Assembly: GCA_964632315.1 (NCBI GenBank)
Contig: CAZWEM010000025.1
Coordinates: 1-55,619, forward strand
Source: an uncultured archaeon
GTDB taxonomy: Archaea > Asgardarchaeota > Lokiarchaeia > Sigyniarchaeales > SOKP01
Direction: 5' to 3'
Length of the DNA stretch: 55,619 nucleotides
Part shown: positions 1 to 1,759 of the stretch, piece after piece
Position numbering within the stretch: the stretch's first letter is position 1
Layout of the letters: each line of letters starts with the position of its first letter
Made by a program: the position numbers and the translations under genes
The notes under the pieces: model-generated
Databases searched by the model: none
Told to the model about the DNA's origin: nothing
The model's input: only the letters and a program-made list of their open reading frames with translations

Positions 1-1759
1 AAGATCCAATAATAACCGTCTTCATCTCGTCTTGCGCCATCTCCCGTATAGTAATGCCCCGGATATCGATTTAGATAGGTTGATTTGAACCGCTCCGTGT
101 CACCCCAGACATCTCTTAGCATTCCTGGCCATGGATGCACTCAATTTTCTTACTGAAAACTCATTTGTGCCATTGCAAAATATCCCCCCACATTCTCTTC
201 TTCGATTACATCACCTTCTAAATCGAATATAACGGGTTTTATTCCCAGGAATGGTAAGCAGCAGGATCCCGGCTTTGTTGGAGTCGCCGTTGCGATTGGA
301 GTCATAATAAAGCCGCCCGTTTCTGTTAGCCAAATCTTTCTAAATGAACGATTTTTTTGCCAATAAGTATCGACAATGGGCGCTTTACCTTTTCCTATTT
401 TGTAAAAGTACCAAGTCCAGGCTTCGGGGTTTTTCCCGAATACGAATAAGTTTTTCGTATTTATCGGTTCCCCAACAGTGCCTAAGATTCGGATAGAGCT
501 AAGATCATGCTTATTAACTGGCTCTTCACCATAACGCATTAACGCTCTAATTGCAGTTGGAGCTGTATAAATTCCCATTTCAGGACGAATCATACTGAAA
601 TATTGAGTTACCTTGTGTCTTTCGACTATATCCCAAAAGCGGTCTACTTTTACCCCACTTGGAAGAGATTTCCAATTGAAATTACTTGTGACTGGGTATG
701 TAGGCACGCCTTCGTACATCAAGGTCGTAGCTCCATTCGCAAGAGGTCCATATACAATGTAGGAATGTCCGGTGATCCAGCCTATATTTCAGCTGGTATT
801 GGTGAAGTACCAATTCCATCTGCTGTACAATACCAGACATCGCCATCCTTGTAGTTAAAGACGACTTTATGGGTGTAGGACGTGTATAAGATGTATCCCG
901 CGGTGGTATGTTTGACCCCTTTTGGTTTTCCGGTGGTCCCGCTCGTATAGAGAATGAAGAGAGTATCTTCAGAGTCCATGTGCTCGGGTTCGCATTCCTC
1001 ACTCATTCCCTCAATGAAATCATGGTACCAGATGTCTTTATCAGTATGCGGTACGTCATTTCCACTATGCTTGACCACGATCACGTGTTCAATAGTGGGC
1101 ACGTCGTCGATGATTTGAACGACGTCAGCCATTTTCGGATAAAATTTCCCAGCACGTACCGTTTGATCGCTGGTGAACAGCAGTCGAGAGTCTGAATCTT
1201 CAATCCTGTCCTTGACGGCTTCTTTCGAGAATCCACCAAATACAATGGAGTGAATGACACCAATTCGGGCACACGCGAGCATGATAATGGCGAGTTCGGG
1301 AATCATTGGCAACCAGATGGTTACCCTATCACCTTTTTTCAAGCCCAGTTTTTTCATGCCGTTAGCAGCTTTAGAAACCTCTGCGAGTAGTTCCTTGTAA
1401 GTATATTTACGCACTTTACCAGGTTCATCAGCTTCCCAGATGAGAGCTGTATGGTCACCTTTTCCGTTTTTCACGTGTCGATCCAAGCAATTGTATGCTA
1501 CGTTGAGTTTACCGCCAACAAACCATTTTCCTGGAAACAGGTCGGTTTTTTCCCAGACTTTTTCGTAGGGCGTGAACCAATCGAGTGATTTCGCTTGTTC
1601 TCCCCAGAATCCTTCCATGTCTTCGATGGATTCCTTGTAAAGCTTTTGATATTCCTTGAACGACATTCCAGTTGCGGCGTAATCTGGGTTGAGGTCTCGT
1701 GGGTCGAACTTCCTTGTTTCGGTTAGGATGCTTTCCATTTTTGAGTCTTTTTCTGACAT
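1..1759 (-). CDS. acs: AMP-forming acetyl-CoA synthetase, split by six BHB introns; 3' end runs off the window. Exons: 1759-820, 787-692, 649-602, 571-463, 432-356, 325-165, 134-<1
   Basis: ORFs 782..1759 and 150..722 plus downstream sequence give ACS motifs [57 protein letters not shown] and [17 protein letters not shown] once six short inserts are removed. Exon lengths 940/96/48/109/77/161 keep the frame. Confidence 0.95.
135..164 (-). other. BHB intron 6 of acs (30 nt, contains in-frame TAA and TGA)
   Basis: GCAATG-GCAC-AA^A-TGAGTTTTC...GAAAATTGA-GTGC-AT^C-CATGGC: perfect GCAC/GTGC helix. Splicing gives AMAQPWPGML. Confidence 0.93.
326..355 (-). other. Relaxed BHB intron 5 of acs (30 nt, in frame, no stop)
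   Basis: TT-GGCA-AA^A-AAATC...GATTT-GGCT-AA^C-AG, with one A-G mismatch. Splicing restores DTYWQTETGG. Confidence 0.87.
433..462 (-). other. Relaxed BHB intron 4 of acs (30 nt, in frame, no stop)
   Basis: GGGGA-ACCG-AT^A-AATACGAA...TTCGTATT-CGGG-AA^A-AACCCC, with one A-G mismatch in the central helix. Splicing restores VGEPINPEAW. Confidence 0.87.
572..601 (-). other. BHB intron 3 of acs (30 nt, in frame, no stop)
   Basis: GTAA-CTCA-AT^A-TTTCAG...CTGAAA-TGGG-AA^T-TTAT. Splicing creates a TTT codon and restores KVTQFYTAPT. Confidence 0.92.
650..691 (-). other. BHB intron 2 of acs (42 nt, in frame, no stop)
   Basis: CTACAT-ACCC-AG^T-CAC...GTG-GGGT-AA^A-AGTAG. Splicing gives TYPEVDRFW, matching the spacing of typical YPDPDRFW. 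Confidence 0.87.
788..819 (-). other. BHB intron 1 of acs (32 nt, frameshifting)
   Basis: TTGTA-CAGC-AG^A-TGG...CCA-GCTG-AA^A-TATAG: perfect 4-bp helix CAGC/GCTG, two 3-nt bulges and flanking helices. Splicing gives GCA GAT ATA GGC TGG (ADIGW). Confidence 0.93.

Follow-up and report, generated by a model that had tools for sequence, protein, structure and literature searches.

The window analysed here is a 55,619-nt stretch of DNA from an uncultured archaeon (Lokiarchaeia, Sigyniarchaeales; NCBI GenBank assembly GCA_964632315.1, contig CAZWEM010000025.1, positions 1 to 55,619), and our subject is a 32-nt insert in the acs gene on the minus strand at its start. The gene has its start codon at 1759 and is cut by the contig end at position 1. 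Its first 313 codons encode an ordinary Acs N-terminal half with the Pfam domains ACAS_N and AMP-binding, and this exon 1 shares 84-88% identity with intronless orthologs. After ...WYCTA the frame is broken, and 12 codons further on it is closed by a TAG at 784-782, which leaves an unspliced open reading frame (782..1759) of 325 aa. At the break, the 32-nt insert (819..788) splits the Asp codon of a motif conserved in all relatives. Excision of 819..788 joins ...ACAGCAG to ATATAGGC..., reads GCA G^AT ATA GGC TGG (Ala-Asp-Ile; here and below the caret marks the junction), and restores both the TADIGW motif and the frame. In its longer form, the predicted spliced junction is TGTACAGCAG^ATATAGGCTGG, with the core GCAG^AUAUAGG. 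Cut positions +0, +1 and +2 all give the same product, since the insert has repeats of A and T at either end. The original prediction, made from the sequence alone, had placed a frameshifting 32-nt intron at 788-819, with unspliced translation stopping at 782 and with a junction that restores ADIGW; coordinates, sequence, stop codon and junction were all found as described. The features of the acs locus are as follows.

820..1759, minus strand: acs exon 1, which starts at 1759 and whose last base, G, is the first base of the Asp codon.
788..819, minus strand: acs intron 1, 32 nt, read 819 to 788, with the predicted cuts between 820/819 and 788/787.
692..787, minus strand: acs exon 2 (AT ATA GGC TGG ...), from the alignment of the spliced product to the intronless ortholog P0131.
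782..784, minus strand: TAG that closes the unspliced frame, made of the exon-2 bases ATA+G.
135..691, minus strand: region with the five other acs inserts (650-691, 572-601, 433-462, 326-355 and 135-164), the same or neighbouring sites being occupied in relatives.

Intron 1 is the first of six inserts in this gene, and the lengths of those that follow are 42, 30, 30, 30 and 30 nt. With all six removed, acs is colinear with its closest intronless ortholog, P0131: the two products share 90.6% identity in a single unbroken alignment that spans the same 521 residues. The organism's genome, G000 (a metagenome-type assembly of 119 contigs, estimated to be 99% complete with 8.6% contamination), contains no other true acs, and the next paralog is 32% identical. 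Splicing had been called obligatory for intron 1, and the frameshift bears this out; the property is not special to intron 1, as intron 6 contains stop codons and splicing is obligatory there as well. The further claim that intron 1 is the sole intron with a length not divisible by three holds within this gene but not among its relatives. A second frame-shifting 32-nt acs insert lies after reference nt 1521 in two loci, L040 (genome G029) and L042 (genome G041), where it reads …GGTTATTAC^ACCA…GGGATGAA^TA…, so that in the acs family intron 1 is not the only insert of this length. Across all acs sites, most inserts are 30 nt long, and the other lengths are 32, 33, 42 and 60 nt.

The transcript around intron 1 can be folded into a bulge-helix-bulge (BHB) structure of the hBHBh' type, the form recognised in archaeal tRNA introns. 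Its elements, read on the minus strand and compared in four alleles, are as follows.

822..825, minus strand: 5' strand of the central helix H, CAGC, in exon 1; it pairs with 790-793, with 100% of cells paired in the four alleles and one A-U changed to G-U.
790..793, minus strand: 3' strand of the central helix, H', GCUG, in the intron; its pairing with CAGC is perfect.
819..821, minus strand: 5' bulge AGA, with the predicted cut after the G at 820; invariant in the four alleles.
787..789, minus strand: 3' bulge AAA, with the predicted cut after the A at 788; invariant in the four alleles.
794..818, minus strand: inner helix h' and loop, consisting of UGG/CCA, an A.A mismatch, AUUGGU/ACCAAU and the loop ACUUC.
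826..838, minus strand: 5' strand of the outer helix h, UUGUA beside H and the distal GUCUGGU past a 1-nt bulge, from a constrained fold; 97.9% of cells paired.
775..786, minus strand: 3' strand of the outer helix h, UAUAG beside the bulge and the distal GCUGGAU.

The two 3-nt bulges lie on opposite strands 4 bp apart, and the central helix between them is kept in 4/4 alleles, one of which has a G-U pair. The outer helix, UUGUA/UAUAG, joins exon to exon through 5 bp (2 of them G-U), with 7 further pairs possible, mostly G-U; it forms 5/5 bp in three alleles and 4/5 in G041. In the inner stem, 9/10 positions are paired in G000, and the base of the stem is weaker in G063. The hBHBh' fold that had been proposed for intron 1 was thus recovered with its perfect central helix, both flanking helices and the internal ATTGGT/ACCAAT stem, though this fold is not the one of minimum energy. 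A strict motif scanner accepted the intron 1 motif at shift 0 only, and the cut after bulge nucleotide 2 is the frame-restoring cut. The chance of a strict motif coinciding with the sole frame-restoring cut is ~2e-4. Within this acs, the strict scanner assigned hBHBh' to introns 1 and 3 only; intron 2 passed a relaxed rule, and introns 4-6 failed the relaxed rule owing to a mismatch in the central or inner helix.

Exon 1 was used as a query on 151 genomes of the order, and inserts were mapped in 50 orthologous loci. Most of the acs orthologs have uninterrupted frames of 661-662 aa. G041, G050 and G063, three further genomes of Promethearchaeota, have a 32-nt insert at the identical acs site, and apart from these no acs match to the insert was found among 185,579 species genomes. 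Two bacterial matches to the insert pattern (L055 and L057) lie outside the acs motif and were set aside as chance matches. In the public protein collections, 34 environmental proteins continue past ...WYCTA for 12 read-through residues before they stop. Over nine residues, 18 different versions of these tails occur, and every full-length tail ends in AEI and the stop. The four DNA copies of intron 1 have their length and ends (A...GCUGAA) in common and are divergent in their interior. When the four alleles were placed on the BHB structure, 92.3% of cells were paired, compared with 23-38% in slid registers, and 8/10 inner-stem pairs were changed on both sides; 0/500 shuffles reached these values. 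In the environmental proteins, 52/57 of the pairs determined by amino acids, in 13 distinct tails, were compatible with the stem. The read-through peptides are not conserved, so the constraint acts on the RNA and not on the protein. As for the conserved AEI ending, no function needs to be invoked: the TAG arises from the same ATA codon whose bases pair in the outer helix.

Selection was examined in the exons of the intron-bearing genes. Downstream of the frameshift, the ratio of nonsynonymous to synonymous substitution rates (dN/dS) between these genes is 0.02-0.06, with dS >1. Despite this saturated dS, the four intron-bearing genes share GTC TGG TAT TGY ACR GCA G^AT ATA GGY almost without a base difference. 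Among the intron-bearing genes, third positions have an identity of 0.78 in the ten degenerate codons that flank the intron and of 0.45 over the remainder of the gene; in the 46 intronless genes the corresponding values are 0.49 and 0.48. The spliced-junction pattern was present in 4/4 intron alleles after excision and in 0/46 intronless loci. The synonymous positions that are frozen in this way are the bases that build the central and outer helices. Judged from these comparisons, the exon side of intron 1 restricts codon choice, and acs with intron 1 is, by its pattern of substitution, a live gene.

The genome encodes enzymes of the kind that such an intron would need. EndA is represented by two paralogs that scored above the Pfam cut-off, each with both EndA domains: a 207-aa minus-strand ORF in the region 33342-36566 of contig C28 and a 205-aa plus-strand ORF in the region 39646-42900 of contig C8. 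Taking Tyr, His and Lys to be the catalytic residues of EndA, as we assume here, inspection by eye shows all of them in one paralog, and the other without the His. RtcB is also encoded, on contig C26 (568 bits). Asgard archaea are reported to have a broad-specificity (alpha-beta)2 EndA (PMC5829648), and the non-strict introns 2 and 4-6 of this acs fit with an endonuclease of broad specificity. ARAGORN detected only 30 tRNA genes in this genome, estimated to be 99% complete, and for 19 it called introns, some of which are too long to be plausible. Probably many tRNA genes are too interrupted for detection; the counts fit an intron-rich set of RNA genes.

Same-site homologs, covariation in the stem, purifying selection, and the presence of EndA and RtcB strongly support the frameshifting intron that had been predicted at this site. 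Collectively, these results suggest that 819..788 is very probably a maintained BHB (tRNA-type) intron of the acs pre-mRNA, with EndA as the cutting enzyme and RtcB as the ligase of the exons; from the sequence we infer both the cleavage and the ligation. In the proposed mechanism, the transcript would fold so that CAGC of exon 1 pairs with GCUG of the intron, exposing the bulges AGA and AAA between the exon-exon outer helix and the intron hairpin. A heteromeric splicing endonuclease, formed by the EndA paralogs of contigs C28 and C8, would cut after the second nucleotide of each bulge. RtcB would then join the exons to give GCA G^AT ATA, that is Ala-Asp-Ile, and would probably also circularise the 32-nt intron. 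Without splicing, translation would halt 12 codons on, at the TAG at 784-782, and yield a 325-aa fragment.

Several observations weigh against a BHB intron at this site. The minimum-energy fold is a shifted register, CAG/CUG, at -20.8 kcal/mol, and the BHB fold, at -19.8, is 1 kcal/mol worse; the probability of the BHB core helix in the ensemble is 0.22. At a rate of 7e-5 per site and length, the strict motif is equally common in real and in shuffled sequence, which amounts to ~370 occurrences in the window. It is not enriched in the window or in the genome and is no proof when taken alone. Covariation at the DNA level comes from four alleles only, which are related, so the shuffle test overstates its significance. 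Lastly, no transcript with intron 1 removed was found, either with the junction DNA pattern in JGI metagenome contigs or in junction-peptide searches. The exact spliced-junction pattern had one match in those contigs, L053, which has no intron at any of the six acs sites. L053 was rejected as spliced RNA: it is an intronless genomic allele (that of P0131) with genes on both strands, and it is 79% identical in nucleotides to the acs of G000. Searches with a 61-aa junction peptide, among longer proteins and those of similar length, returned nothing above 97% identity, the match at that level being an intronless allele in genomic DNA, and short junction-peptide matches at 75-83% were rejected as bacterial frameshift fragments. 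A further JGI protein, P0353 (324 aa, on a 1432-nt contig), is 95.5% identical to exon 1 of G000 and was grouped among the intron-bearing relatives. Its sequence runs through the junction (CTADIGWITG) and terminates after a divergent stretch (ADLS). P0353 may derive from a fragment of a spliced transcript, from an allele that lacks the intron or from a chimeric contig.

Because shuffled sequence contains the strict BHB motif just as often, motif counts give no estimate of how many introns there are. When the whole genome was scanned under a stricter rule, with matches sorted by intron length, there was no excess at 30 or 32 nt, and this stricter rule also drops intron 1 itself. Elsewhere in the window, a 30-nt insert in an EF-2 family gene (29359-29388, minus strand) has a perfect 4-bp central helix with the bulges AUU and AAG, an inner stem paired at 9/10 positions and a weak outer helix. 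With this build, BHB inserts in the window are not limited to acs.

Intron 1 is missing in 46/50 orthologous loci. The distance between intron variants tracks the distance between their host genes (r = 0.49, 0/2000 permutations), which fits with long co-inheritance rather than recent spread. Within single clusters at 90% identity there is a mixture of proteins that stop at intron 1, proteins that read past its site and stop in intron 5, and full-length proteins. The protein P0366 (657 aa, from a 16.5-kb ENA contig, no intron) equals exon 1 of P0005 in 313/313 residues, and P0005 stops at intron 1 (325 aa). Another intronless protein, P0375, is 98% identical to exon 1 of G050; its genome was not found among 135 family genomes.

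The closest pair at the DNA level is G050 (locus L033, five introns) and G003 (locus L020, none), compared over acs reference nt 1-1370. They differ by ~4% until ~100 nt upstream of the intron-1 site and by ~18% beyond; counted in 60-nt steps, ~2 differences per step are seen as far as nt ~840 and 6-22 per step after that. On this comparison, a recombination breakpoint adjoins the intron cluster, and the G050 and G003 alleles are recombinant mosaics. In trees, G000 pairs with G063 in the intron-bearing segment and not in exon 1. The exon-1 tree gives 17 changes for 21 intron-bearing rows, and the tree of the adjacent segment gives 3 changes for 4 loci; the count of 17 is not taken at face value because the alleles are mosaic, with the breakpoint ~100 nt upstream of the intron. 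The junction bases of L053 and G000 agree at 29/30 for intron 1 and at 22-25/30 for the other five sites, which fits, weakly, with precise loss. Together, these comparisons make intron 1 look old and inherited with its host segment, and repeatedly lost or replaced through recombination of intron-rich and intron-free alleles.

Two further observations were made on the environmental proteins. By eye, P0368 and P0375 are the same up to ...EPINPEAW save for one residue (GDEPV and GDKPV). They differ strongly between the intron-4 and intron-5 sites (LWYFNIIGKGKAP versus TWYHRVIGKERCP), and one stops in intron 5 while the other is full length; this contrast looks like another sign of exon-scale recombination. 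The JGI protein P0010 (419 aa), which is free of intron 1, has six residues missing just after the junction (DIGW-IVYGPL), an 18-nt deletion in a conserved motif beside the intron site.

The original prediction had also suggested that splicing of intron 1 could gate expression. In eukaryotes, XBP1/HAC1 is a stress-regulated switch in which a very short frameshifting intron is removed without the spliceosome, IRE1 cutting at two structured sites (twin stem-loops). By analogy, splicing of intron 1 could be conditional and rate-limiting, with EndA and RtcB forming a post-transcriptional switch on acetate activation. The intron does shift the frame, with a stop within 12 codons in every full-length allele, and the slightly more stable competing fold (-20.8 compared with -19.8 kcal/mol) could make cleavage tunable. 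If such a gate existed, the prokaryotes most closely related to eukaryotes would possess an archaeal counterpart to XBP1/HAC1, with the near-isoenergetic fold as its tunable element. We nevertheless consider a gate improbable because the intron is freely lost among near-identical alleles. It is lacking from 46/50 loci and from P0366, whose exon 1 is identical to that of an intron-bearing allele, and intron-bearing and intron-free alleles recombine freely. The early stop is explained by the ATA codon needed for the outer helix, and intron 6 would block expression equally. The suggestion of gating was, in short, left unsupported.

Decay of the gene, with the 32-nt insert as a frameshifting insertion in a pseudogene, would account for the truncated 325-aa frame read by gene callers and for the five more inserts downstream. 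The low dN/dS downstream of the frameshift at saturated dS, the conservation of insert length and site across lineages, and the compensatory changes in the stem make this very unlikely. In addition, the six inserts excise to a colinear Acs, and this acs is the sole one in a genome estimated to be 99% complete. Translational bypassing, with ribosomes hopping across the 32 nt as they do across a 50-nt gap in phage T4 gene 60, would be in keeping with the hairpin that the insert forms and with the stop codon shortly downstream. We find it scarcely credible here: take-off and landing codons do not match (GAU, then AAU at the landing site), the conserved features are two 3-nt bulges and a 4-bp helix with exon bases, which hopping does not need, and the in-frame neighbour introns of the same gene are built alike. 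An assembly or sequencing artefact, for which one might cite the metagenome-type assembly with its 119 contigs and 8.6% estimated contamination, is refuted by recurrence in three independent genomes and dozens of environmental assemblies (JGI, ENA, NCBI and Logan) and carries next to no probability.

The interpretation of the insert as a BHB intron has consequences beyond this locus. In dozens of public assemblies, gene callers have recorded acs as a fragment of 325 aa, so that Asgard gene content and metabolism are under-read where such introns occur. Intron-rich and intron-free alleles of acs coexist and recombine within one archaeal family, and acs offers a concrete system for how introns of protein genes persist, spread and get lost in the lineage nearest to eukaryotes.

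Among known systems, the closest is the intron of cbf5. Watanabe reportedly described, in 2002, a BHB intron in the cbf5 pre-mRNA of Crenarchaeota. These crenarchaeal introns are 16-44 bp long, sometimes frame-shifting, and patchy in distribution, with gain and loss (Yokobori 2009, PMC2738675). Like acs intron 1, the cbf5 intron is a short BHB element within a coding sequence that splits the codon of a conserved residue, so that splicing is required; both are patchily distributed and too short for a homing enzyme. They differ in host gene (acs, not cbf5), in lineage (Promethearchaeota, not Thermoproteota) and in that acs intron 1 is one of six introns in its gene. Splicing of the cbf5 intron was shown on RNA, whereas acs intron 1 is known here from sequence comparison. 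As acs intron 1 does not lie in the cbf5 of Desulfurococcales or Sulfolobales, it represents the same kind of element but a different family.

Archaeal tRNA introns share with acs intron 1 the two 3-nt bulges, the 4-bp helix, the flanking helices and the cut after bulge nucleotide 2, and the enzymes that splice them, EndA and RtcB, are also encoded in this genome. In contrast to a tRNA, the acs host is an mRNA whose helices are built from codons, with synonymous sites frozen, and there is no tRNA body to aid recognition. The EndA of Haloferax volcanii is homodimeric. A 2020 study gives cbf5 as the only case of a BHB intron in a coding sequence and adds a 5' untranslated region intron in the HVO_1309 mRNA of H. 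volcanii (PMC7714728). As proposed for acs, HVO_1309 presents an mRNA as substrate of an archaeal splicing endonuclease, there both in vivo and in vitro (PMC7714728), but its intron lies in the leader and not in a coding frame, and the host is a euryarchaeon.

More distant systems resemble parts of the proposal. In XBP1/HAC1 splicing, as proposed for acs, a protein endonuclease and an RtcB-type ligase remove a short frameshifting intron; the acs system would use EndA and not IRE1, and a BHB and not twin stem-loops, and the two are not homologous as systems. A link of RtcB to splicing of the XBP1/HAC1 type is mentioned in PMC8718801. The gap in T4 gene 60 is, like acs intron 1, a short non-coding hairpin within a coding sequence, but acs lacks matched take-off and landing codons, and its BHB geometry points to cleavage of the RNA. 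Literature searches on Asgard archaea with BHB or splicing endonuclease found only work on tRNA and rRNA, and in the literature searched, splicing of an archaeal coding sequence by the tRNA machinery was documented for cbf5 only. Taken together, these comparisons suggest that acs intron 1 is the same kind of element as the known BHB introns, and that what differs is its setting, a central metabolic gene of an Asgard archaeon with six such introns, the first of which breaks the frame.

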